This document shows, piece after piece, positions 19,536-56,055 of a DNA stretch of 64,000 bases. The translations under genes were made by a program, and so were the position numbers. Below the pieces are notes generated by a model, which did no database searches, had not been told where the DNA came from, and saw only the letters and a program-made list of their open reading frames with translations. Within the stretch, counting starts at the first letter, position 1. Each line of letters starts with the position of its first letter. Source of the DNA: an uncultured Clostridia bacterium (GTDB lineage: Bacteria; Bacillota; Clostridia; TANB77; UBA1234); contig CAKPAA010000007.1 in NCBI GenBank assembly GCA_934132775.1, positions 21,599 through 85,598 on the forward strand, read 5' to 3'.

Positions 19536-20159
19536 TTAGTATGTTAATCCAGCATTTGTTGCAGAATTGTCAAGAGGTCCATTTACTGAACTTACAAGAA
19601 CTACAGGAGTTGTAATATTTGGGAAAGTAATACTTGATGTATCTCCTGTCAAAGCTGCATAAGTAGTTTTATCTATAGCTAATGTATCATTTAGATAATA
19701 CTTATCTTCATATTTGTATGGAGGCCATACGAATACTTGACCATCATAAGTTACAGCATACTTAACTTCATAATTTGAAGCTGCTGGTGTATTAACTTTG
19801 ATTGTTGGTAATTTAATACCAATTGATTTTTCTGCTTTTGCTCCATCAATTATTGTGTATTGTGTTAATTGAGCTATTGGTGTAATGTCTCCACTTTGAG
19901 TTCCATCTTTACCTTCAGCTATTGTCTTGTAAGATTGTGCATCTGTAATTTCATTACCAATTGCTGCTTGATCACCTTTGAATTCTGTTGCAGATTTTTT
20001 GAAAGCATCTCTAACTTCACCAATGTTTGATACAAACTTAGAATAGTTTGCCTTTTCAATTGTTGATGTTGAAGAGTTGAATGCGATTGCTGCTAAGATA
20101 ATTACAACGATAATTGTAATTACAAGTGCTATTAAAGAAACACCTTTTTGATTTTTCAT
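19536..20159 (-). CDS. Pilin-like protein (prepilin-type N-terminus without Glu5), 207 aa
   Basis: N-terminus MKNQKG|VSLIALVITIIVVIILAAIAF is a class III signal-like hydrophobic segment. The first ~50 aa and the conserved block YTIID..IGIKLP..VNTP..VKYAVT..G.VF.WPP are shared with the 507-aa paralog at 36910..38433. Confidence 0.6.
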   Translation of the reverse strand: MKNQKGVSLIALVITIIVVIILAAIAFNSSTSTIEKANYSKFVSNIGEVRDAFKKSATEFKGDQAAIGNEITDAQSYKTIAEGKDGTQSGDITPIAQLTQYTIIDGAKAEKSIGIKLPTIKVNTPAASNYEVKYAVTYDGQVFVWPPYKYEDKYYLNDTLAIDKTTYAALTGDTSSITFPNITTPVVLVSSVNGPLDNSATNAGLTY

Positions 20160-20188
20160 AATAAATTTCCTCCTTTTATTTTTGCTTT

Positions 20189-20216
20189 TCTAGAGTATGC
20201 TTAAAATTACTCTAGA
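20189..20216. promoter_or_regulatory. Candidate operator: perfect 9-bp inverted repeat TCTAGAGTA-N10-TACTCTAGA upstream of the pilin-like gene, with a third half-site at 20245..20253
   Basis: Seen directly. Lies 17 to 45 nt upstream of the RBS of the gene starting at 20159. The TACTCTAGA(CT) unit recurs at 20208 and 20245. Confidence 0.4.
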
Positions 20217-20416
20217 CTTCTTTGTTAGTCTTAAAAGCTCTTACTACTCTAGACTAGCAAAATAATGATTTACGTTTTTTGTCAATACTCGCACAATATC
20301 GACTAAAAAACTTATTAAATCCTTTTACAACTTTGATTATAACCAATCGGTTTTAATATTGCAATAGTTATGTTCATTAAATTATTGTTACAAACTTGTT
20401 ACAGTTTTGTAACATA

Positions 20417-21784
20417 TTATAGGTATGCATCGAACAAGAATGAACCCATGTATACTTCCATAATTGGTTTTAATACTAATATTACGAATGCTATCATAAC
20501 TATACCCATGATAGACATACTTATTTGTGGTAATATCTTTATTGTTCTTTCTATTGTTATGTTTATTTCATCTTCCATGTACTCAACAATTTTGTTTATC
20601 ATATCGGTTATATCTGTTTCCATACCTATTCTAAGCATCTCTAATGCCATTCTTGGCATATTAGGCAAAGTTTCAAATGGTTCAACCCATGAATCACCTT
20701 GCTGTAAATTATCTGTCGCTGATTCAATAACAGATAAAACCACGTAGTTACTTACTGTTCCTTTACTTACTTCAAGAGCGTCTTGCAATTTAGCATTGTT
20801 AGCTAAGTTTAATTGCATAGCTTCAAAAAACTTCTGTAATTGAAGTCTTAATATAAGTCCTCCAAATACAGGCAATTTTAATTTAAACATATCCCATTGA
20901 TACTTTCCATGAATAGTAGACTTCCAAAGAATAAATGCTGTTACCAAGCCCGCTACCACTGCAACACCAATATACCAATATTTTATTACAAGCTTTATAA
21001 AATTTGACGCAGCCATAGTTGCTGCTGGAATTTGGTTTGTTAATCCCATGCTAGCATATAGGTCTTCCAATATTGGCACACCAACCATAATACCTACAAC
21101 TGTTCCAACTAGCATAAGCACTGCTTGTAGTAAAGGTCCAACTAAAGCTTTTTTCAATGCTTTTGTTCTTTTTGTACTTGTTTCTAAGTAATTCATTGCT
21201 TGAAACAACGCATTTGTAAGTGAACCTGAAAGTTCACCAACCTTGATTGTCTCAATATAAATATCTGGGAATATTTTATTGTAATATTCTAGTGTAGAAT
21301 ATATATATTCACCAGCTTCAACACCGTTTAGAATATCTTCAATAACACTTCTCATAGCTGGGTTATCTGTATTTTCTAATAATGTTGCCAATGCTCTTAT
21401 GTTAGTAAAATTTGCCCTTTTTAACAAGTATAAACTCTGTGTAAATGAAAAAACATCCTTTTTAGTTACTCTATATAAAAATGATAAATCGAGTTCAAAT
21501 GGAAGTTCTATTTCCATCTGCAAACCAGTTTTCTCTTTCTTTTTCTGATTTTCTATCATTTTTTGCTTTGCATATTTACTAACGGATGCACTTGAAGAGG
21601 TTATCGCATTCCTTTTTGCTTTCTTGTTGCTAAGTCCACCTAGTGCTTTACTTTGTTGAACTGATACAGGTTGTAGTCCATTATTTTTTAGTCTTTCCAA
21701 AACACTTTCACGTGATTCATCATCTATGGTGCCATTAACAACTTTACCATTTGACAGAACTGCTCTATATCTGAATTTAGCCAT
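20417..21784 (-). CDS. pilC: Type IV pilus platform protein (PilC/GspF family)
   Basis: PilC-like N-terminus (MAKFRYRA..G..V.G) and two T2SS-F domains in a polytopic membrane protein. Confidence 0.88.
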   Translation of the reverse strand: MAKFRYRAVLSNGKVVNGTIDDESRESVLERLKNNGLQPVSVQQSKALGGLSNKKAKRNAITSSSASVSKYAKQKMIENQKKKEKTGLQMEIELPFELDLSFLYRVTKKDVFSFTQSLYLLKRANFTNIRALATLLENTDNPAMRSVIEDILNGVEAGEYIYSTLEYYNKIFPDIYIETIKVGELSGSLTNALFQAMNYLETSTKRTKALKKALVGPLLQAVLMLVGTVVGIMVGVPILEDLYASMGLTNQIPAATMAASNFIKLVIKYWYIGVAVVAGLVTAFILWKSTIHGKYQWDMFKLKLPVFGGLILRLQLQKFFEAMQLNLANNAKLQDALEVSKGTVSNYVVLSVIESATDNLQQGDSWVEPFETLPNMPRMALEMLRIGMETDITDMINKIVEYMEDEINITIERTIKILPQISMSIMGIVMIAFVILVLKPIMEVYMGSFLFDAYL

Positions 21785-21822
21785 TGTTTTCTTCCTTTCT
21801 TATAAGTAATCTCAGCATAATT

Positions 21823-23472
21823 TTAATATGCTAATTTCTTCTTTACCTCACTTATTACTGTACGTCCATCTAGTACTTTATTAAAAGCATCTACAACAAG
21901 AGGTCTATATCCAGTTTCATAGGCTTTCTTTCTTATGTCGGTTATTGTGCCATCTGATATTATCAAATTTTTTATTTCTTCATCTACAATTAACATTTCA
22001 TTTGCAGCAATTCTTCCATAAAAGCCAGTGTAGTTGCATTTCTCGCATCCTACTGGTTCATATGTATGTTTACCTGTTAGGTCAAATTCATAATTATATC
22101 TTGTACCTATCTTTTTAAATTCATTTACTTCATCTTCTGTGAACTCTCTTTCTCTGCAACAATCTTTACATATTCTTCTTACAAGTCTTTGTGCTATTGA
22201 TGTTGCTAAAACGCTTCCTATATCGTAACTTGATATTCCAAGTTTTCTAAGTCTTGTGATAACCTCTATACTATCAACTGTGTGAATTGTTGACAACACA
22301 AAGTGACCTGTTTGACCTGCCTGTATTGCAATCTCAGCTGTTTCTTTATCTCTTATTTCTCCAAGTAGTATGATGTCTGGGTCTTGTCTTAAAATTGTTC
22401 TTAGTGAGTCAGCAAATGTAACCCTCTTATTTACTTCAACTTGATTTATTCCTGGGATTCTTATTTCAACTGGGTCTTCAACTGTTGTTATATTTATTTC
22501 GGGTCTATTCAACAAAGACAATGCACTATACAAAGTTGTTGTTTTACCTTCACCAGTTGGGGCCGCAATAACTGCAATACAGTTTCTCTTATTAAAGCAT
22601 TTATTCATAATTGTTTCTTGATCTGGATATCCCAACTCTTCCAAACCAGAAATTGTTGACTCTTTCTTCATAAGTCTTAATACAAACTTTTCACCGTATA
22701 TATTCATCTGTGAAGATACACGAATATTGTAGTCTGGATATGCTGTTATTCTACCATCTTGTGAAAGCTGTATTTCTTGGTGCATATTTGATATTGATTT
22801 TAATCTACCAATAACCTGCGCTTGCTTAGATTTTTCTATCGTAGCAATTATAAGTAACTCACCATCAATTCTGAACCTAACTCTTACTTTGTCATCCATT
22901 GGTTCGAAGTGAATATCACTCGCTCTTTTTACCATTGCAGATCTAATTATATTATCTATTAGCTGTGCTACGTCTTTTCCATAGGAATCAAAATTTTTCT
23001 CTTCTTCTGATTTCTTTTCTATGTCTCTAACTATATCATCTATGTATGATTCAAAAGTAACATAAACTTCCATTGAAAGACCTTTACTAAGCAATATTAA
23101 ACGTATCATCTTCTGTAAATCCTTATCTGATGGATCAGCAAAAGCAACTTTTATTCTATTCTCATTTAATTCAAAAGGTAATACCTTATGCTGTTTTACT
23201 ATATCCATTGACAAATACTTAGAAAAGTCAAAATTAAACATACCAGGCTCAAGTTTTATCCCCTTTACTCCAATACCTTCTGCAATTGTATTTAATAGCT
23301 CTTGTTCATCACATACTCCAAGTTTATGAAAAGCTTCTCCTAATTTCGTTCCTTTGTGTTCTCTTTGATATACAATTGCTTTATCTATATCAGACTCATT
23401 TATCAAGCCTTTTCTTATAAGCATAACACCTAATGGTGCTTTTTTCATTGTATTATTATCGAAGATTGCCAT
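21823..23472 (-). CDS. pilB: Type IV pilus assembly ATPase (PilB/GspE family)
   Basis: Walker A APTGEGKTTT, Asp/Walker B DPDIILLGEIRD, His box GHFVLSTIHT and a C-terminal tetracysteine. Confidence 0.92.
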   Translation of the reverse strand: MAIFDNNTMKKAPLGVMLIRKGLINESDIDKAIVYQREHKGTKLGEAFHKLGVCDEQELLNTIAEGIGVKGIKLEPGMFNFDFSKYLSMDIVKQHKVLPFELNENRIKVAFADPSDKDLQKMIRLILLSKGLSMEVYVTFESYIDDIVRDIEKKSEEEKNFDSYGKDVAQLIDNIIRSAMVKRASDIHFEPMDDKVRVRFRIDGELLIIATIEKSKQAQVIGRLKSISNMHQEIQLSQDGRITAYPDYNIRVSSQMNIYGEKFVLRLMKKESTISGLEELGYPDQETIMNKCFNKRNCIAVIAAPTGEGKTTTLYSALSLLNRPEINITTVEDPVEIRIPGINQVEVNKRVTFADSLRTILRQDPDIILLGEIRDKETAEIAIQAGQTGHFVLSTIHTVDSIEVITRLRKLGISSYDIGSVLATSIAQRLVRRICKDCCREREFTEDEVNEFKKIGTRYNYEFDLTGKHTYEPVGCEKCNYTGFYGRIAANEMLIVDEEIKNLIISDGTITDIRKKAYETGYRPLVVDAFNKVLDGRTVISEVKKKLAY

Positions 23473-23575
23473 TATAAATCCTCCTCTTTTGTATCAATTA
23501 TAAACCCTAATATTATTTTATAATATTTAAAATATAAGTCAATATAAAATGCTTAGTTTCAAACATTTACCAGCG

Positions 23576-23764
23576 CTACATCCTATCAGCTATATCATAT
23601 GCATTTTCTATATCAGAAGAGTATGTTTTTTGTAACTGTTCTATTTGAGACTCCTGCAAAACATAAGCACTAACACTTCTTCCATACAAAGCTATACCAT
23701 ATAAAGCAAGTACAAGCATTGACATTAACGCCGCCATTGTTATTGAACCTCTTTTTTTCCACAT
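23576..23764 (-). CDS. Minor pilin-like protein (short)
   Basis: Prepilin-like leader MWKKRG|SITMAALMSMLVLAL. Start is placed at the internal Met to avoid overlap with the upstream gene; the ORF track extends to 23830. Confidence 0.45.
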   Translation of the reverse strand: MWKKRGSITMAALMSMLVLALYGIALYGRSVSAYVLQESQIEQLQKTYSSDIENAYDIADRM

Positions 23765-23777
23765 ATTCTTCGCCCCT

Positions 23778-24248
23778 TTAATAACCTTTTCCAACTTTGA
23801 TATTATAGTCGGAAGTATAAACATTATCATCTTTTGTATAACTTAATTTTATTTTAATAATCTCTTGATTTTCTGCATTATCAAAACCAAATCCTACATT
23901 TGAAAGCTTGTCTGTTATTAAAACATTGTTTCTATATAGCTCATAAATATTAAACGTTTGATTTTCTTCATTTCTGTTATCAGAACTAAATTTAACAGTA
24001 TATTCTGTGCCATTGCTAAGTCTTAAATGTCTATCTGAAAATTCTAGCACTCTTTCAGAAGCTTTTATGTCATCTATTAAAAAAGCTTGCGCCTTTAACA
24101 CTTCGCTACTTTTGGTGCTCTTCACTGTTAAATCAGCTATCTGTGACATAAAATTAATATTCAAAAATGCAAGCGTGCCCAAAACAACAACCGACACAAT
24201 TATATAAACAGTAAGCGAAAGCATCGTTACACCTTTTTGATCATTCAT
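23778..24248 (-). CDS. Pilin-like/pseudopilin protein without Glu5
   Basis: MNDQKG|VTMLSLTVYIIVSVVVL N-terminus, in the pilus operon. Confidence 0.55.
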   Translation of the reverse strand: MNDQKGVTMLSLTVYIIVSVVVLGTLAFLNINFMSQIADLTVKSTKSSEVLKAQAFLIDDIKASERVLEFSDRHLRLSNGTEYTVKFSSDNRNEENQTFNIYELYRNNVLITDKLSNVGFGFDNAENQEIIKIKLSYTKDDNVYTSDYNIKVGKGY

Positions 24249-24704
24249 TTACATTTCCTCCTCAACTTTCAAAGTTTTTAGCTCTATTGTTCTTTTGCTC
24301 GAAGGGTCATTTTTCTTTGTGTAAAATTGTACTTCCGCATTTAATAATTTCACCTTTGAATCATCATAACTTACCCCATTTTTAGGTGGAAGATTTTCTA
24401 TCGTAGTTGTAACTGTTAAATTATATTTTTTTACTTCTGTTAACGTAGTTCTTTTTCCATTTTCATCTTCAATTACACGTGTGTCTGCTGGGTCATCTGT
24501 AATTGAATAATCCTCAATTCCAATAAGTTCACTCTCAACAGCCTTAATTAGATAAGACATAGCTATATTTTTTTGCTCTACAAGCCTATAATTTGCGCAA
24601 GTACCACTAAGCATTGATATAGCACAAGATAAAAATATTGAAATAAGCACTAATCCAACTCCAACTTCAACAAGAGAATAACCTTTTTGAGATTTAAATT
24701 TCAT
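24249..24704 (-). CDS. Type IV prepilin with a canonical N-terminal cleavage/methylation motif
   Basis: KG|YSLVEV gives Gly-1 and Glu+5, followed by a hydrophobic helix. Confidence 0.65.
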   Translation of the reverse strand: MKFKSQKGYSLVEVGVGLVLISIFLSCAISMLSGTCANYRLVEQKNIAMSYLIKAVESELIGIEDYSITDDPADTRVIEDENGKRTTLTEVKKYNLTVTTTIENLPPKNGVSYDDSKVKLLNAEVQFYTKKNDPSSKRTIELKTLKVEEEM

Positions 24705-24733
24705 ATTAAAACTCCTTCATACTTTAATTAAAA

Positions 24734-25540
24734 TTAAGCTATATTATTATTTATAAGAGTAGCAATTGGCATAAGATAATTAGTAAATATTATTGCAATT
24801 ACACTACCTATACTTAAAAAATATCCAAATGGTATTTCTTTATATTTTTTTATAACCGTTATTAGACTTCCAACAATAACAGCCAGCACAATTGAAATAA
24901 CTTGCATTCCAAAGCCAAGGAACAATCCTATCATCGCTATATATTTAATATCTCCAAAGCCGAATGGAAGTTTTTCATTTTTTAGCATCTTTTTAATAAT
25001 CACATCTATTAATATCAAAATCAATGGTATAACTAAAAATCCTAATAAATTATATAGCATACTTTCACTTAAAAATATTGCTTTATATAGTCCATTTGCC
25101 AAACCTATGAATATTCCATATAGCAACGCACCATCATGTATTTCAAGCTTTTCTTTATCAATTCCGCCTATTATGTATAATGCACACATAAACAAATAAA
25201 CAAAAAAAAGATTTATAAATTCATATATCGAACTATACACATCTATTTTAGCAAGTAATGCTATTAAAACAAATGTAAGTCCTGAAAAGATTTCTAATAG
25301 CACATATCTACTTCTTATTTTTTCTTTGCAATATCTGCACTTTCCACCTAAAAAAATGTAACTAAATATAGGTATCAAATCCCAAAAATTTAATCTATGA
25401 TTGCAAGTTGTGCAGTGTGATCTTTGATGTGTTATATCTTCTTTACGTGGCAATCTATATACTGCAAGTGAAAAGAAGCTTCCAAAAACAGAGCCACATA
25501 TAAATATTGCTAAGTATAATATAATGTTCATATCTTTCAT
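24734..25540 (-). CDS. pilD: Prepilin peptidase (A24 family, PilD)
   Basis: N-terminal Cys-rich zinc-binding region (HCTTCNHRL..DLIPIFSY..GGKCRYCKEKI) and a polytopic membrane body. Confidence 0.88.
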   Translation of the reverse strand: MKDMNIILYLAIFICGSVFGSFFSLAVYRLPRKEDITHQRSHCTTCNHRLNFWDLIPIFSYIFLGGKCRYCKEKIRSRYVLLEIFSGLTFVLIALLAKIDVYSSIYEFINLFFVYLFMCALYIIGGIDKEKLEIHDGALLYGIFIGLANGLYKAIFLSESMLYNLLGFLVIPLILILIDVIIKKMLKNEKLPFGFGDIKYIAMIGLFLGFGMQVISIVLAVIVGSLITVIKKYKEIPFGYFLSIGSVIAIIFTNYLMPIATLINNNIA

Positions 25541-36909: not shown

Positions 36910-38433
36910 TTATTTAATATTCCAAGCAGTTGATGCAGATGAACCATCAGTTGAAGAATTTGAAATATCTAATAAATTAGCTGATATAGAGATTACAGGA
37001 CGAAGACCATACGAAGGCGCGCCCACGTAGCCAGTCGAAATGACTGAGTAGTAGCCGTAGACATAGGTAGTATAAGCCGTGCGTAAGCCATAGTAGGCAA
37101 AGGCACCCTCAGAGGCCAAGCCGACATACGGCGAAGCGAGCCAGCCTCTATTGTCTACATCTCCTTTTAGTATATCGCCAATCTTCGCATTGGCACTACT
37201 CGGATTATAACCATAATATGTCCTTGTTATTAAAACTGGTTCATCTTTTGACTTTAATTCAATATAATCAGTTTCACTTGTTGATTTATGTGTTACTCCA
37301 TTCTTGTCATCCCAGTTATAGAATCTTGGGTACTCTACTCCACTTGCTAAACTTGCAGTGTGCTTTTTAGCTGTGTATGTGTGTCCTCCTGCTACTACAT
37401 CTTTCAAATCACTATCCGCCGTATCAGCTGGATACCAAGCCCATCTTGTTAGATTTGTTGATGGAATATAATCACAAGCCTTATTCAAATCTTCTATTGT
37501 CATACTTCTTGCTGTTATTCCCTTATCTGCATTTGAATATAACTTCTCACATAATCTATGCAATTCGTTTGCACCATATAAATATCCTGCTGCACCCTTA
37601 ATAGTTACTTTGTTTACGTACCCATCTGTTGTTAGCATAACTTTTCCTGTTTCATTATCGATACTCAAAATTCTCCACTTTGCTGTTGCATCTGTTGAAA
37701 GAGTTTCTTTTGTGTAACCGGTTTTTCTTGGATCTGTTTCAACATTCTGCACCGCTGTTGGTACGTAGTTCACATAGTCTCCTACTTTTATTTTACTTGT
37801 TATTTCTTCAAACTCTTTCTTAGACAAGCCATCGTCCAAAAGTTCTCTATTTTCAAGGTTACTACTCTCATTTATTTGCAACTTAAAAGTTGTACCTGCA
37901 ACTGTTATATCAACATCTCCTGAACTAGAAACAAGTGAACTATCTACAAATTCCTTGTCTCTTATGTTATATGCATTCTCGCTTGGAAATGGTGGCCAAA
38001 TAAACACCTTACCATTTTTAGTTACAGCATATTTAACATCAACATTAGTCTCACTTGGAGTATTCACTCTCATTACTGGTAACTTAATTCCAATATCTGC
38101 ACTCTTATCAATTATTGTATAATCAGGTGTCCTGCTTTCTACCACAAAATCACTATCAGTCCTACCACCCTTAGCTACATAATTAAACACTTGTCCATCA
38201 GTAATCTGAGAACCCTTCGCAAGCATTGCACCTTTAACCTCTATCATCTTCTCATTTATAGCCTGTTCAACTTCACTAATATTAGACACAAACTTAGAAT
38301 AATTCGCCTTTCCAATAGTGCCCGTTGAACTATTAAAAGCAATAGCTGCTAAAATAATTACTACTATAATCGTAATAACCAATGCAATAAGAGAAATACC
38401 TCTCTCACTATTTCTTAATTCAAAACATTTCAT
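36910..38433 (-). CDS. Pilin-like protein with a large C-terminal C-type-lectin/FGE-like domain carrying a hypervariable-region-like patch (507 aa)
   Basis: N-terminus ERG|ISLIALVITIIVVIILAAIAF is paralogous to the 19536..20159 product. C-terminus NRGW...YYGLR...YGLRPV resembles the RGGSW...GFRxV framing of diversity-generating-retroelement target domains. Confidence 0.6.
   Translation of the reverse strand: MKCFELRNSERGISLIALVITIIVVIILAAIAFNSSTGTIGKANYSKFVSNISEVEQAINEKMIEVKGAMLAKGSQITDGQVFNYVAKGGRTDSDFVVESRTPDYTIIDKSADIGIKLPVMRVNTPSETNVDVKYAVTKNGKVFIWPPFPSENAYNIRDKEFVDSSLVSSSGDVDITVAGTTFKLQINESSNLENRELLDDGLSKKEFEEITSKIKVGDYVNYVPTAVQNVETDPRKTGYTKETLSTDATAKWRILSIDNETGKVMLTTDGYVNKVTIKGAAGYLYGANELHRLCEKLYSNADKGITARSMTIEDLNKACDYIPSTNLTRWAWYPADTADSDLKDVVAGGHTYTAKKHTASLASGVEYPRFYNWDDKNGVTHKSTSETDYIELKSKDEPVLITRTYYGYNPSSANAKIGDILKGDVDNRGWLASPYVGLASEGAFAYYGLRTAYTTYVYGYYSVISTGYVGAPSYGLRPVISISANLLDISNSSTDGSSASTAWNIK
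36995..37200 (-). other. GC-rich, adenine-depleted, NNC-codon-biased patch resembling a diversity-generating-retroelement variable region
   Basis: Roughly 200 nt with host-atypical codons (GGC, GCC, TAC, GTC, CGC, TCG, CCG), including the GC-only run GTGGGCGCGCC, embedded in an otherwise AT-rich gene. Confidence 0.4.
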
Positions 38434-38932
38434 ACGTAAATCAACCTCATTTCTTCATTTTATTTTTTATACTCTCAACACTATCTCAAACAAAACTCAC
38501 TTAAATCCAGCCACTATGTTCAAAGGAGTAAAAGTACATAGAATAAATTTTTTCGGCTCGGTATGGGTAGGTAGGAGAAAAAATTTTTCTATTACTTTTA
38601 CGACGCTACTATGCCAAAACAAACTTAAATTGGTGCTTTTATAAATCATAGTAACTAATCAGAACAAACTTAAAATAACTCTTTCATAAATTGTAGCATC
38701 TTCTCAAAGCAAAGCATATTTTTCACACGCCAAAAAGACTAACCAAAACTTAGCCATCTCATTCAAGTTTCACACAAAACTCAAATAAATAGCAAAATTT
38801 CAGTTAGTCTCCTAACTATCCTCAACATAATTTATAAAATCCAAAGCAAAATAGCAAACACTTGCAACACTTACTGCACAAACATCAGCCACACCGAAAG
38901 CACTCTCATAAGAAACTGCTTTCGCATTTCTT

Positions 38933-38998
38933 TTATTTAAAAATTGGCTTGTGTGTGTGTGTGTGTACAGCCCCAACGGTTTCAAGTACCTTGTTCAT
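38933..38998 (-). CDS. Small ORF with RBS GGAGG containing an (AC)8 tract on the coding strand; 21 codons now, 62 codons if the tract had 9 units
   Basis: ATG 6 nt after AGGAGG, 40 nt downstream of the HD-GYP gene. Current product is MNKVLETVGAVHTHTHKPIFK. Confidence 0.25.
   Translation of the reverse strand: MNKVLETVGAVHTHTHKPIFK
38951..38966. repeat. (GT)8 dinucleotide microsatellite
   Basis: gtgtgtgtgtgtgtgt read directly. Confidence 0.95.
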
Positions 38999-39038
38999 TT
39001 TTCTCCTCCTGTTTCTAAAATTTAATTACTAAAAACAT

Positions 39039-39941
39039 CTATATTCTCAACTGTTTTATCAATTTTTGAATTTCTTCTTGCTCACTTTCATATAATTTCA
39101 TCTTCTCAATTTCTTTTTCCAATGCTCTCTGCTTAATTATAAGCAAATTAGCATTTGTACTCATATCATATCCTGGTGCCAGTTCAAATCTTTTCAACTT
39201 TCTTTCTAATTTTTTAGTTAAACCTTGATCATATATTTGTTTGTATATGCCTTCTAATTCGTGTAATATCTCTAAATTATTTCTATACTGCATTACATTC
39301 TTTTCGTGTGTATTACGTTCCTCTGTCACTTTATCATACACAACCATTAACAAATACACCAAATATTCACCAGACATTTTTTTGTTCTTCACATCTTGAA
39401 CCATCATTTTTAATGCATCACTTATTTTGTAACCATCTTTATATTGCCTCTTTTGTGTCAATGCATCATATACATCAGCAACTTTTATTATCTGTGCCTC
39501 TTTCGGAATTTCATCTCCCTTTAATCCGTCTGGATATCCTGTACCGTCCATATTTTCGTGATGTGCTCTTACTATTGGTGCTAAGTCTTTAAAGTTTTTA
39601 TATTCCATACATATTTCATATCCGTATATCGTATGTTTTTTCATTATTTCAAATTCTTCATCCGTTAGCCTTGAAGTTTTTTGTAGTATCTCAGGTGGTA
39701 TTTTTATTTTTCCCACGTCGTGCAAATATGCAGCAAGAACACATTTTTTTAATTCTTCGTATGGCATCCCCATTCTTTGACACATAGCAGTTGTCATCTT
39801 GGCAACACCTTGTACGTGTGCATCTGTAAATATATCTAGTCCCTTTAACACTGATATTTCCAAACTAATCTCATTTGATAACTCTGCCTCATTTATTCTT
39901 GTGCTTCCTAGTATATCTAACGGTTTAAAACGTTTTTTCAT
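39039..39941 (-). CDS. HD-GYP domain cyclic-dinucleotide phosphodiesterase
   Basis: HD motif (LHDVGK) and HHENMDGTGYP motif. Start is at the Met preceded by GGAGG; the track ORF extends to 40004. Confidence 0.85.
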   Translation of the reverse strand: MKKRFKPLDILGSTRINEAELSNEISLEISVLKGLDIFTDAHVQGVAKMTTAMCQRMGMPYEELKKCVLAAYLHDVGKIKIPPEILQKTSRLTDEEFEIMKKHTIYGYEICMEYKNFKDLAPIVRAHHENMDGTGYPDGLKGDEIPKEAQIIKVADVYDALTQKRQYKDGYKISDALKMMVQDVKNKKMSGEYLVYLLMVVYDKVTEERNTHEKNVMQYRNNLEILHELEGIYKQIYDQGLTKKLERKLKRFELAPGYDMSTNANLLIIKQRALEKEIEKMKLYESEQEEIQKLIKQLRI

Positions 39942-39958
39942 CTTTTGTATCCTCCTAA

Positions 39959-40759
39959 TTATATTGCTTGATAGGTTCCATTCTTTAAATTTATTTCTAT
40001 CCACTTTTTATTTATTTTTATAATTAGCCTGTATTCTAATAGTGATAAATTTCCTTCTAAATGCGCTATGTAGTACATTATCTCTTTTGAAAATTTATCT
40101 AAATCCGTTATATCTTCGAAATATTCTGGACTTGTTATTTCTGCGAATATAATATTTATATCATATTTTTTATAATTATCCAATAGCTTTCTTATTTTCT
40201 CAAATATCTTGTTTTTTATATCTATATTATACTCTTCTTCAAGTTCTGGATTTATCTTAGGTGTAAGAATTGTTCTTTTACCATCATTGTATATTTCAAC
40301 TTTATCACTGGCTTTTTTATATTCAATATATCCCTCTATATTTTCTTTTTCTAACTTATATTCTTCCAAGTCGTGTGAAAGCTTTTCAACTAGCCAGTCA
40401 TATCCAACATATATTTTTGTAACTTCTATTCCTATGCTCTTTCCTTTTCGTTCTAACACAAAGTCTGGGCATTCCGTTTTCGTTATCTTACCAGAACGTA
40501 TTTTAAATTTATTTAATAATTTAAAAACAGTATTAAATTCATTTATTTCTTTTTGGAGTTGTTTATTTCTCTCTAGTTCATTTTCAACCATTTGATTCCA
40601 AATTTTTATATCTTTTTGAGTTGCCTTAACTTTTGTCATTTTTAACGTGAATGTGTTTAAATTTAGCACCATATCGTCCATATGGACTTTTATATATGCA
40701 TCTTTAATTTCACCTGAACTTTTATGAGAATTCATTACATCATATATAGGATTTTCCAT
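39959..40759 (-). CDS. Hypothetical protein (266 aa) with a weak PD-(D/E)xK-like segment
   Basis: ORF with the RBS GGGAG. Segment ECPDFVLERKGKSIGIEVTK loosely resembles a PD...ExK nuclease core. Ends at the RBS of the HD-GYP gene. Confidence 0.5.
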   Translation of the reverse strand: MENPIYDVMNSHKSSGEIKDAYIKVHMDDMVLNLNTFTLKMTKVKATQKDIKIWNQMVENELERNKQLQKEINEFNTVFKLLNKFKIRSGKITKTECPDFVLERKGKSIGIEVTKIYVGYDWLVEKLSHDLEEYKLEKENIEGYIEYKKASDKVEIYNDGKRTILTPKINPELEEEYNIDIKNKIFEKIRKLLDNYKKYDINIIFAEITSPEYFEDITDLDKFSKEIMYYIAHLEGNLSLLEYRLIIKINKKWIEINLKNGTYQAI

Positions 40760-43046: not shown

Positions 43047-43520
43047 ATGAACAAGAAAATTTTAATTACACTTACGTTAGTGTTATCTTTAATGAGTTTC
43101 TCACTTGTTTTTGCAGCAAATAATAACACTGTAAATAGTGGAACTACTGCTGGTAGAGTTATAGATAATACTGGTAATGCAGTTGGAAATACTGCTGGAA
43201 ATGTTGTCAATGATATTGGTAAGGGCGTTGGTGGTGTTATTAACGGTGCTGGTAGTGCTGTAAATAGTGTTGGTAACGCAGTTAGCAATGTTGGCAGAGA
43301 TTTAGGTAATGGTGTTAATAATACAACTGATTCTATTACTAACGAATCAAATAGTTCTACTGGTTATAATGCTACTAGAACTTCTGCAACAGCTGGAAAT
43401 ACTGCCGCTGATACTACTTGGACTTGGATTATTGTTATAGTTGCTGCTATCGCTATTATTGGACTTATTTGGTACTATAATGCTGAAAACAAAGAACATA
43501 ATTCAAGAAAAGATAGATAA
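43047..43520 (+). CDS. Secreted, membrane-anchored low-complexity G/N/V-repeat protein
   Basis: Signal peptide, GNAVGNTAGNVVN-type repeats and a C-terminal transmembrane helix. RBS AGGAGG. Confidence 0.55.
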   Translation: MNKKILITLTLVLSLMSFSLVFAANNNTVNSGTTAGRVIDNTGNAVGNTAGNVVNDIGKGVGGVINGAGSAVNSVGNAVSNVGRDLGNGVNNTTDSITNESNSSTGYNATRTSATAGNTAADTTWTWIIVIVAAIAIIGLIWYYNAENKEHNSRKDR

Positions 43521-54853: not shown

Positions 54854-55222
54854 CTAAGCAAGTTCAACTGTTGCTCCAGCTTCTTCTAATTTAGCTTTTA
54901 AAGCTTCTGCATCAGCTTTTGGTGCATTCTCTTTAACTGTCTTAGGAGCTCCATCAACTAAGTCTTTAGCTTCTTTTAATCCTAAACCAGTAGCTTCTCT
55001 AACTACTTTGATAACTGCTAATTTTGTAGCTCCAGCGTCTTTTAATACAACATTGAATTCTGTTTTTTCTTCAGCAGCTGCTGCTCCTGCAGCTGGTGCT
55101 GCTACAACTGCTGCTGCAGCTGCAGATACTCCAAATTTGTCTTCAATTGCTTTAACTAAATCAGCTAATTCTAAAACTGTAAGTTTTTCGATTTCAGCTA
55201 TTAAATTTTCGATTTTTTCCAT
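54854..55222 (-). CDS. rplL: 50S ribosomal protein L7/L12
   Basis: Canonical L7/L12 with an Ala-rich hinge. ATG at 55222 follows GGAGA; the track ORF extends further 5'. Confidence 0.93.
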
Positions 55223-55909: not shown

Positions 55910-56055
55910 TACTACACCTCCTTTTAATAAAAAATCTGACATACTACCGAAGTAAATATGCCAGATCATAAATCCGTTCATTTACCTCGGTAGGAATCTT
56001 TTACATACTTAATGTATAACCCACTGTCTTTGGCTATATATAAATAAATTAAACT
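55910..56055 (-). promoter_or_regulatory. L10-leader-type structured 5' UTR of rplJ-rplL
   Basis: Hairpin ccgaggtaaatgaacggatttatgatctggcatatttacttcgg lies between rplA and rplJ, as in Firmicute L10 autoregulatory leaders. Confidence 0.4.

Follow-up and report, generated by a model that had tools for sequence, protein, structure and literature searches.

A slippable repeat in a leader open reading frame as a candidate switch for a type IV pilin-like gene in an uncultured gut Clostridia bacterium

Organization of the locus

The locus described here lies on the minus strand of a 64,000-nucleotide (nt) stretch of DNA from an uncultured Clostridia bacterium (assembly GCA_934132775.1, contig CAKPAA010000007.1, positions 21,599 to 85,598), which is referred to throughout as the window and whose own numbering is used for all positions. 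Downstream of a gene for an HD-GYP protein, a short leader open reading frame (ORF) carries a tract of AC dinucleotides and is followed by a long RNA hairpin, beyond which stands the gene for a pilin-like protein of 507 amino acids (aa). This arrangement may be viewed as a module of two parts, the leader ORF with its hairpin and then a large, putative pilin-like adhesin gene, and we think it probable, with some reserve, that slipped-strand changes in the tract switch the frame of the leader ORF and thereby decide whether transcription passes a premature terminator and enters the pilin-like gene. The features of the module are as follows, with OFF denoting a unit number that leaves the leader tail unread and ON one that opens it.

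39039..40004, minus strand: HD-GYP gene (Pfam HD_5/HD), ending 40 nt before the leader ORF
39010-39005, minus strand: Shine-Dalgarno sequence AGGAGG of the leader ORF, read directly, 6 nt (agaaaa) before the ATG
38933..38998, minus strand: leader ORF in its present state, OFF, 21 codons, MNKVLETVGAVHTHTHKPIFK; ATG 38998-38996, TAA 38935-38933
38951-38966, minus strand: slippage tract (AC)8, codons 11-17, encoding (His-Thr)n when in frame
38812..38950, minus strand: 45-codon tail of the leader ORF with its TAG, translated only if the unit number is a multiple of three
38732..38809, minus strand: 38-bp RNA hairpin, stem 38809-38737, then U5 at 38736-38732; proposed premature terminator or attenuator
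38508..38612, minus strand: leader element of about 105 nt, ATAGTAGCGTCGTAAAAGTAATAGAAAAATTTTTTCTCCTACCTACCCATACCGAGCCGAAAAAATTTATTC..., nearly invariant among copies whose flanks are 70-80% identical
36910..38433, minus strand: gene for the 507-aa pilin-like protein, presumed to be regulated; type IV pilin N-domain plus variable C-terminal domain

The repeat tract and the frames of the leader ORF

An initial annotation, made from the letters of the DNA, had described a GT microsatellite inside a small ORF whose ATG follows AGGAGG by 6 nt, directly downstream of an HD-GYP gene and upstream of a pilin-like gene, and had called dinucleotide repeats rare in this sequence. All of this was borne out: the ORF is on the minus strand, the upstream gene encodes an HD/HD_5 protein with a GYP motif, and the 507-aa product of the downstream gene has a prepilin-like N-terminus. 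Seen from the plus strand, the tract is reported by Tandem Repeats Finder (TRF) as (TG)8.5 at 38950-38966. No AC-type run occurred in any of 100 dinucleotide-preserving shuffles of the window (31.4% GC), which argues that the tract is not a chance feature, and the sole other dinucleotide run of at least five units in the 64 kb is (AT)5.

With the eight units present in the window, the ORF ends at its TAA after 21 codons, as the annotation had stated, and the predicted product consists of the parts MNKVLETVGAV-HTHTH-KPIFK. A frame of 62 codons had been expected with either nine or six units; this holds for nine, with which the 62-aa frame is open to the TAG at 38814-38812, whereas six units give 60 codons. 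The program-made ORF list of the window includes a 57-aa, TTG-initiated ORF at 38812..38985 that lies within this long frame. Translation in either OFF frame stops 5 or 6 codons past the tract and about 125 nt upstream of the hairpin, at a conserved AAGCCAATTTTTAAATAA that supplies the stop in each of the two frames. Structure prediction for the leader RNA (38860-38966, minus strand) places the AC tract opposite GU-rich stretches of the ORF tail, GGUGUGG...UGUGCAG, with which it pairs; the helix would be extended by additional units, and the pairing may be incidental.

The leader ORF family and variation in unit number

When the 62-aa frame was used as a protein query, at least 29 clusters were recovered, 26 of the 29 being 56-66 aa long and 24 spanning the full query, and their alignment differs mainly in the number of His-Thr dipeptides, which ranges from 1.5 to 5. 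More distant members, found by a profile search of 1.84 billion representatives, share the head M.K.LETVGAV(HT)n followed by unrelated tails of 30-66 aa, and include truncated alleles as well as alleles in both wrong frames. Among alleles at least 90% identical to one another, (HT)3 is found beside (HT)4, together with alleles in each wrong frame. P0008 and P0022 start ...GLYTHTHT, which is the window's own out-of-frame reading taken from an alternative start codon, and P0046 (33 aa, ending ...HTHTHTHKPIFK) stops at ...KPIFK, exactly like the window product; a truncated product of the same kind is also found in L014 and L013. The leader peptide has no family match in Pfam or NCBIfam.

At the DNA level, 16 distinct copies from public gut-metagenome assemblies were compared. 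They contain 6, 8, 8, 9, 9, 9, 9, 10, 10, 11, 12, 12, 12, 12 and 15 AC units, and one more has an interrupted tract. The layout is the same in all 16, with the repeat inside a short ORF that has its own ATG and its own ribosome-binding site (RBS), an equivalent GAGGAG/AAGGAG standing in every copy. Seven of the 16 are out of frame, and in all seven the frame of the tail is still open, which is what a reversible switch, and not decay, would lead one to expect. The most direct comparison is offered by L022, a 122-kb contig that is syntenic with the window at 96-98% identity, both having the order HtrA, 266-aa gene and HD-GYP, then radical SAM, DUF378, UDPGP and a 192-aa gene. L022 has two modules at this locus, the first with 10 units (OFF) at the same HD-GYP junction as in the window, and the second, about 3.5 kb further, with 12 units (ON); the window has a single copy with eight.

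It could be objected that errors of sequencing or assembly account for the unit number, or that the tract is a hypermutable microsatellite which evolves neutrally and plays no part in expression. Short-read assemblies are prone to error in dinucleotide runs, and coverage is low for several of the contigs (1.8x for L014, for example). However, the architecture recurs in many independent assemblies, the same allele shows the same count in three to six samples (L009/L010; L018-L020; L022-L027), the codon position of the tract is constant in an ORF that is conserved and whose two alternative frames stop at once, and no other run of this kind is present in the 64-kb window. Such an origin is therefore considered highly improbable. 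The initial annotation had proposed a slipped-strand phase switch and had suggested that units be counted in other isolates; counting in public assemblies showed that the number does vary (6-15 units, and 10 and 12 in L022 vs 8 in the window), and the near-identical alleles in and out of frame and the open tails of the OFF copies likewise support the proposal. The AC tract is thus very probably a genuine frame switch. The features found are those of a slipped-strand contingency locus: a slippable tract, a position that sets the frame, a surface structure as the target and several loci per genome.

The 11-codon head of the ORF, M.K.LETVGAV (38967-38998, minus strand), is kept even in distant relatives and is nearly invariant as DNA; the context of translation initiation, an effect of the nascent peptide and a role as recombination substrate are all possibilities for it.

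The hairpin after the ON-frame stop

The 38-bp hairpin begins 2 nt after the UAG of the ON frame. In the window its predicted free energy is -35.6 kcal/mol (z -8.9), and z ranges from -7 to -10 among the copies. It is maintained in 12 copies with many G-U pairs, three compensatory pairs and U5 directly after it; the abundance of G-U pairs indicates that the structure is specific to this RNA strand. Two divergent modules on L021 have unrelated 47-aa ORF tails, and in them the long hairpin is replaced by a terminator with a predicted stem of 16-18 bp (13-bp AGACTAGGTTAAG core) plus T5, which lies 5 nt past the stop. The ORF of L016 has lost the usual stop by mutation and runs four codons further, to end inside the 5' arm. 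Judged by the stop positions in the main family, L021 and L016, the placement of the stop relative to the hairpin is conserved while the sequences are not. Thus, the ON frame ends at or in a hairpin and the OFF frames end well upstream of it (at least 28 nt), as in the pil1 system discussed below. A known RNA family in the leader was considered and rejected, as Rfam searches, at gathering threshold for the window and at an E-value threshold for 38300-39200, drew only chance-level, miRNA-like matches to the hairpin.

The geometry just described would also suit a different course of events, in which translation of the leader ORF gates the gene but the hairpin acts after transcription, as an RNase III or processing site or as a stability element whose base is opened by the ribosome. 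A near-perfect duplex of 38 bp is longer than usual terminators and would be a plausible substrate for a double-strand-specific RNase, and the terminator scan did not call it. Against this, U5 always follows the hairpin directly, and a short canonical terminator stands in the same place in the divergent L021 modules, which argues that termination is the conserved property. A post-transcriptional hairpin is accordingly held to be decidedly unlikely, and the premature terminator is retained as the preferred interpretation.

Module context, transcription and recombination

Ten of the 11 full-length leader copies precede a gene of about 500 codons whose product has no Pfam domains, the hairpin coming first and then a gap of about 110-530 nt. 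In L022 module 1, only about 110 nt separate the ORF stop from the pilin-like gene, and the RBS of that gene lies about 14 nt past the U-tract; since this leaves no room for a separate promoter, the gene of this module would be transcribed only through the leader. The flanks of the modules vary from site to site (FeoB, GT4 glycosyltransferase, ABC ATPase, OGG, HD-GYP), and tandem pairs of modules are found on the L009, L021 and L022 contigs. In L002 and L003, which are species-level relatives, the HD-GYP gene directly abuts the convergent radical-SAM gene, so the module is regarded as an insertion. Conserved synteny of the module with HD-GYP is ruled out by this gene order together with the varied flanks elsewhere.

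Upstream of the ORF, 11 of 15 copies have a family promoter, TTGAWA-17-TGGTAAAAT, with an extended -10 region. No promoter-like site was found by scan on the minus strand at 38999-39400 of the window, where the HD-GYP gene takes the place of the family promoter, and transcription of the window module therefore probably reads in from that gene. As to the HD-GYP gene itself, its ORF, as called mechanically, starts with GTG at 40004 (minus strand), which makes it overlap with the 266-aa ORF upstream; since the L022 orthologue is called at 300 aa, translation probably begins at an ATG (MKKRFKPLD...) near 39941.

The nearly invariant 105-nt element contains a 25-nt core that is free of mismatches in most modules, and a 32-nt stretch of it occurs once in the window. 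It is absent from L022 module 1, L016 and the L021 modules. Rfam yielded no match for it, and by prediction it folds no better than shuffled versions do (z -1.3). Scans of Joint Genome Institute (JGI) metagenomes, one using the sequences that flank the tract and the other the invariant leader element, returned nothing, nor did a scan of viral contigs; the lineage turned up only in human-gut assemblies from ENA/NCBI.

The single module of the window is a mosaic of the two L022 modules (38150-39099, minus strand, compared with L022:2335-8230), with the following segments.

39099-38950, minus strand: resembles L022 module 1
38949-38500, minus strand: resembles L022 module 2
38499-38150, minus strand: resembles L022 module 1
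gene body, minus strand: mixed L022 modules 1 and 2
3' end, minus strand: resembles L022 module 2

The first of the crossovers coincides with the AC tract or adjoins it, and one pilin-like gene and a 310-aa gene of the L022 locus are absent from the window. A crossover at this position suggests that the invariant ORF head and the repeat also serve exchange or deletion between modules. Two deletion derivatives were seen elsewhere, L015:5001-5700 (12 AC units) and L017:10001-10660 (interrupted tract), in which the pilin-like gene is almost wholly gone; in L015 only its last codons remain, before a polysaccharide deacetylase gene.

These observations raise the question of whether the switch is genuine in the family while the window copy is a silent recombinant cassette that serves mainly as a sequence reservoir. 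In favour of such a role, homology of the window copy to other modules starts at the RBS, the family promoter being missing, the copy is a mosaic with its crossover at the tract, and its state is OFF. On the other hand, the RBS, the ORF, the hairpin and an intact 507-aa gene have all been kept, no terminator-like site was found by scan between HD-GYP and the leader ORF, and L022 module 1, which has the same promoter-less HD-GYP junction, is also intact, which suggests that read-through from HD-GYP is the normal arrangement here. A silent cassette thus appears unlikely.

An open tail without amino-acid constraint

Among the 14 main-family copies, the tail contains no in-frame stop, vs 51 and 74 stops in the other two frames. 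The amino-acid sequence, in contrast, bears no mark of constraint: pairwise comparison of the tails of these copies gives a ratio of non-synonymous to synonymous polymorphism (pN/pS) of 0.82, near the values of the two control frames, and the variable sites of the 12 distinct 45-codon tails are spread over codon positions 1, 2 and 3 as 20, 19 and 23, with no excess at the third position. About 5% of the possible substitutions in the tail would create a stop, the copies hold 187 differences from the consensus, and shuffling of alignment columns gave zero stops in 4.9% of trials (P about 0.05). Four bystander copies that were not found by protein search (the window, L009 copy 2, L022 module 1 and L021 copy B) are all open.

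Because the tail lacks amino-acid constraint, the functional product is unlikely to be the peptide as such, and the best reading of these comparisons may be that translation of the leader matters while the sequence of the peptide does not. The competing view, that the 62-aa peptide, perhaps small and hydrophobic or secreted, is itself the phase-variable product, the hairpin its terminator and the pilin-like gene independently transcribed, can appeal to the strong RBS, to the conservation of the head and of the last eight codons (FINYIEDS), to the persistence of leader ORF and hairpin where the pilin-like gene is gone (L015, L017) and to weak candidate promoters downstream of the hairpin in some copies. 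Yet there is no sign of purifying selection in the tail, as its pN/pS and flat codon-position profile indicate, relatives have unrelated tails, the peptide has no Pfam or NCBIfam match, nearly all full-length copies lie directly upstream of the pilin-like gene, and L022 module 1 offers no room for a second promoter. This view is therefore rated as rather unlikely, and control of read-through into the pilin-like gene, which the initial annotation had raised as a second possibility, would be the better-supported function. An identity as an AgrD-type or ribosomally synthesized and post-translationally modified peptide (RiPP) precursor was also considered for the 62-aa product and rejected: there is no Pfam or NCBIfam match, the positions of Cys are not conserved between alleles and, as regards AgrD, the neighbours of the leader ORF are HD-GYP and the pilin-like gene, with no adjacent agrB.

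The pilin-like gene and the type IV pilus cluster

The N-terminus of the 507-aa protein, ...SERG/ISLIALVITIIVVIILAAIAFN, has the features of a class III signal peptide, namely a short basic leader, Gly at -1 and about 20 hydrophobic residues. No Pfam match was obtained for the protein, and its scores against the NCBIfam prepilin and GspG models were far below cutoff. Its N-terminal third is related to a 207-aa pilin encoded in the type IV pilus gene cluster of the window (53% identity over 162 aa, E 5e-38), which itself scores 18.7 bits against N_methyl (PF07963), with a cutoff of 21.2. Both proteins have Ala, not Glu, at +5; for this reason, and for want of an above-threshold N_methyl match, the 507-aa protein is called pilin-like, not a canonical major pilin. 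The cluster, identified by Pfam, translations and tblastn, is composed as follows.

19536..25540, minus strand: type IV pilus gene cluster
19536-20159, minus strand: 207-aa pilin, sharing its N-domain with the 507-aa family
20417-21784, minus strand: PilC/T2SSF (Pfam)
21823-23472, minus strand: PilB/T2SSE ATPase (Pfam)
24249-24704, minus strand: minor pilin with Glu at +5
24734-25540, minus strand: prepilin peptidase

The pilin-like family comprises at least 540 clusters, none of which has a Pfam domain or a descriptive name, and an exact look-up of the window's 507-aa protein found nothing on record. An AlphaFold model of the pilin-like protein has a mean predicted local distance difference test (pLDDT) score of 79.8, with values above 90 for most of residues 210-490; a Foldseek search of the PDB with this model gave no match. 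The C-terminal domain has weak similarity to the C-type-lectin fold, and conservation along the protein is lowest at residues 426-475. The 507-aa protein is read as a pilin domain carrying a putative variable ligand-binding head.

Proposed mechanism and the points that weigh against it

According to the mechanism that we propose, a unit number that is a multiple of three (6, 9, 12) would put the module in the ON state: 60-64 codons would be translated and the ribosome would stop at the UAG 2 nt before the hairpin, where it would cover the base of the 5' arm, so that the terminator could not close and RNA polymerase would read on into the pilin-like gene. With any other number, such as the eight units of the window, translation would stop about 125 nt before the hairpin, the hairpin would form and most transcripts would end there. 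Several modules would be present per genome, each switching independently of the others and also recombining with them.

A number of observations weigh against this mechanism. Concerning the hairpin, it is atypical for an intrinsic terminator, with 38 bp rich in A-U and G-U pairs, and a simple terminator scan did not call it; in addition, by the time the U-tract is transcribed, RNA polymerase would have moved about 85 nt beyond the stop, and close coupling or a pause would be needed. Concerning transcription, the family promoter is lacking in the window copy and in L022 module 1, and a gap of about 300 nt separates hairpin and gene in the window, where a weak promoter-like sequence (TTGAGA-16-AAAAAT at 38489-38462) is found that is within chance expectation. 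The upstream region of L022 module 2 is that of a paralogue without a leader ORF, and some modules may thus have a promoter of their own; L015 and L017 have kept leader ORF and hairpin after losing the pilin-like gene. Finally, the statistic on the openness of the tail is partly biased, as most copies were found by a protein search that favours open frames.

Comparison with known switches

The closest parallel is found in the pil1 and pil3 loci of Streptococcus gallolyticus, where GCAGA repeats in a leader-peptide gene shift its frame (Danne et al. 2014, PLoS Pathog, PMC3894217). There, pil1 leaders that end at least 28 nt before the premature terminator go with low pilus expression, and leaders that end at or in the hairpin go with high expression, the ribosome blocking formation of the stem-loop (PMC3894217). 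The modules of the present family have the same order of promoter, RBS, repeat-bearing short leader ORF, putative stem-loop terminator and pilin-like gene; in both systems the frame is set by gain or loss of repeat units, more than one locus is present per genome and the host is a gut-associated Firmicute. The differences are nevertheless considerable. The repeat here is an AC dinucleotide of 6-15 units and there a GCAGA pentamer of 13-23 units; the controlled gene here encodes a type IV pilin-like protein and there belongs to a sortase pilus operon; and only here is the family dispersed, tandemly duplicated, recombining and multi-copy, with a single defined ON frame whose fixed stop lies 2 nt before the stem and with a much longer hairpin (38 bp). 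The two share no sequence homology. In summary, the Clostridia system would be an analogue of the S. gallolyticus pil1 switch and not a homologue, with differences in repeat, hairpin, pilus type, lineage and multi-copy organization. Because its features match this experimentally shown switch, an attenuation step, in which the hairpin would terminate transcription and the ribosome would relieve termination, is by a small measure the course that we would expect.

Other contingency loci share single elements of the design. Switching of a surface adhesin or pilus by dinucleotide slippage is also seen in Helicobacter pylori oipA, sabA and hopZ, with CT/AG tracts in the 5' coding region, and in the hif genes of Haemophilus influenzae, with (TA)n; in the Helicobacter adhesin genes, however, the repeat is part of the structural gene, whereas here it is placed in an ORF of its own upstream of the adhesin gene, whose frame is left untouched. 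The opa genes of Neisseria are multi-copy and recombining, with CTCTT repeats inside the leader sequence of the structural gene and purely translational control. Like the present family, they form several paralogous surface loci, each with its own repeat, which allows for combinatorial expression, and recombination between copies adds further variation; unlike it, they involve neither an upstream ORF nor a terminator.

Two further systems are similar with respect to the leader. In lex2A/lex2B of H. influenzae, GCAA repeats are located in a small upstream ORF whose translation sets expression of the downstream gene, as proposed here, and control is usually explained by translational coupling of adjacent or overlapping ORFs; in the present modules, by contrast, the two ORFs are 110-400 nt apart, with a hairpin and its U-tract between them. 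In cwpV of Clostridioides difficile, a surface-protein gene that likewise belongs to the class Clostridia, a heritable change in leader DNA also decides whether a premature terminator forms, but the change is a site-specific inversion by a recombinase and involves neither repeat slippage nor a leader peptide.

Other features of the window

Several features unrelated to the module were observed. A 45-nt tandem repeat at 43139-43231 (plus strand; 2.1 copies, 24-nt sub-period) lies inside a 157-aa Gly/Asn/Thr-rich ORF, with a signal-like segment at the N-terminus of the product and a hydrophobic one at its C-terminus. In the window, a single Rfam family exceeds its gathering score, the ribosomal protein L10 leader at 55920-56051 (minus strand; RF00557, 50.4 bits), and near it, at 55077-55123, there is a (GCT)n repeat coding for Ala.

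Significance

Repeat-driven switches are textbook knowledge for Neisseria, Haemophilus, Helicobacter and Campylobacter; in gut Firmicutes, most of what is known about phase variation concerns invertible DNA switches. A full-text literature search found no description of such a repeat switch in Clostridia or for type IV pilins, and the S. gallolyticus pil1/pil3 system was the only experimentally studied leader-peptide repeat controlling a premature terminator that it returned. If the proposed mechanism is correct, a second, unrelated case of leader-peptide control would show that this is a recurrent design and not a curiosity.

On a wider scale, it is possible, though this remains a tentative suggestion, that these modules form a genome-wide combinatorial adhesin system in uncultured gut Clostridia. 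In such a system, paralogous large pilins with hypervariable, lectin-like heads would each be gated by a private (AC)n attenuator, and the head of the leader ORF with its repeat would be the crossover site at which promoters, leaders and adhesin cassettes are shuffled. Slippage-based phase variation and recombination-based antigenic variation would then be joined in a single module, and this for a kind of pilus and in a phylum without described repeat switching. The family is large: its leaders form at least 29 clusters and its pilin-like proteins more than 500, and a large, unannotated family of variable pilin-adhesins is thereby flagged in uncultured Clostridia of the human gut. The on/off state of each locus could then be read from metagenomes as the unit number modulo three, and adhesin expression at the level of strains, as well as its selection by the host, would become testable from sequence data.

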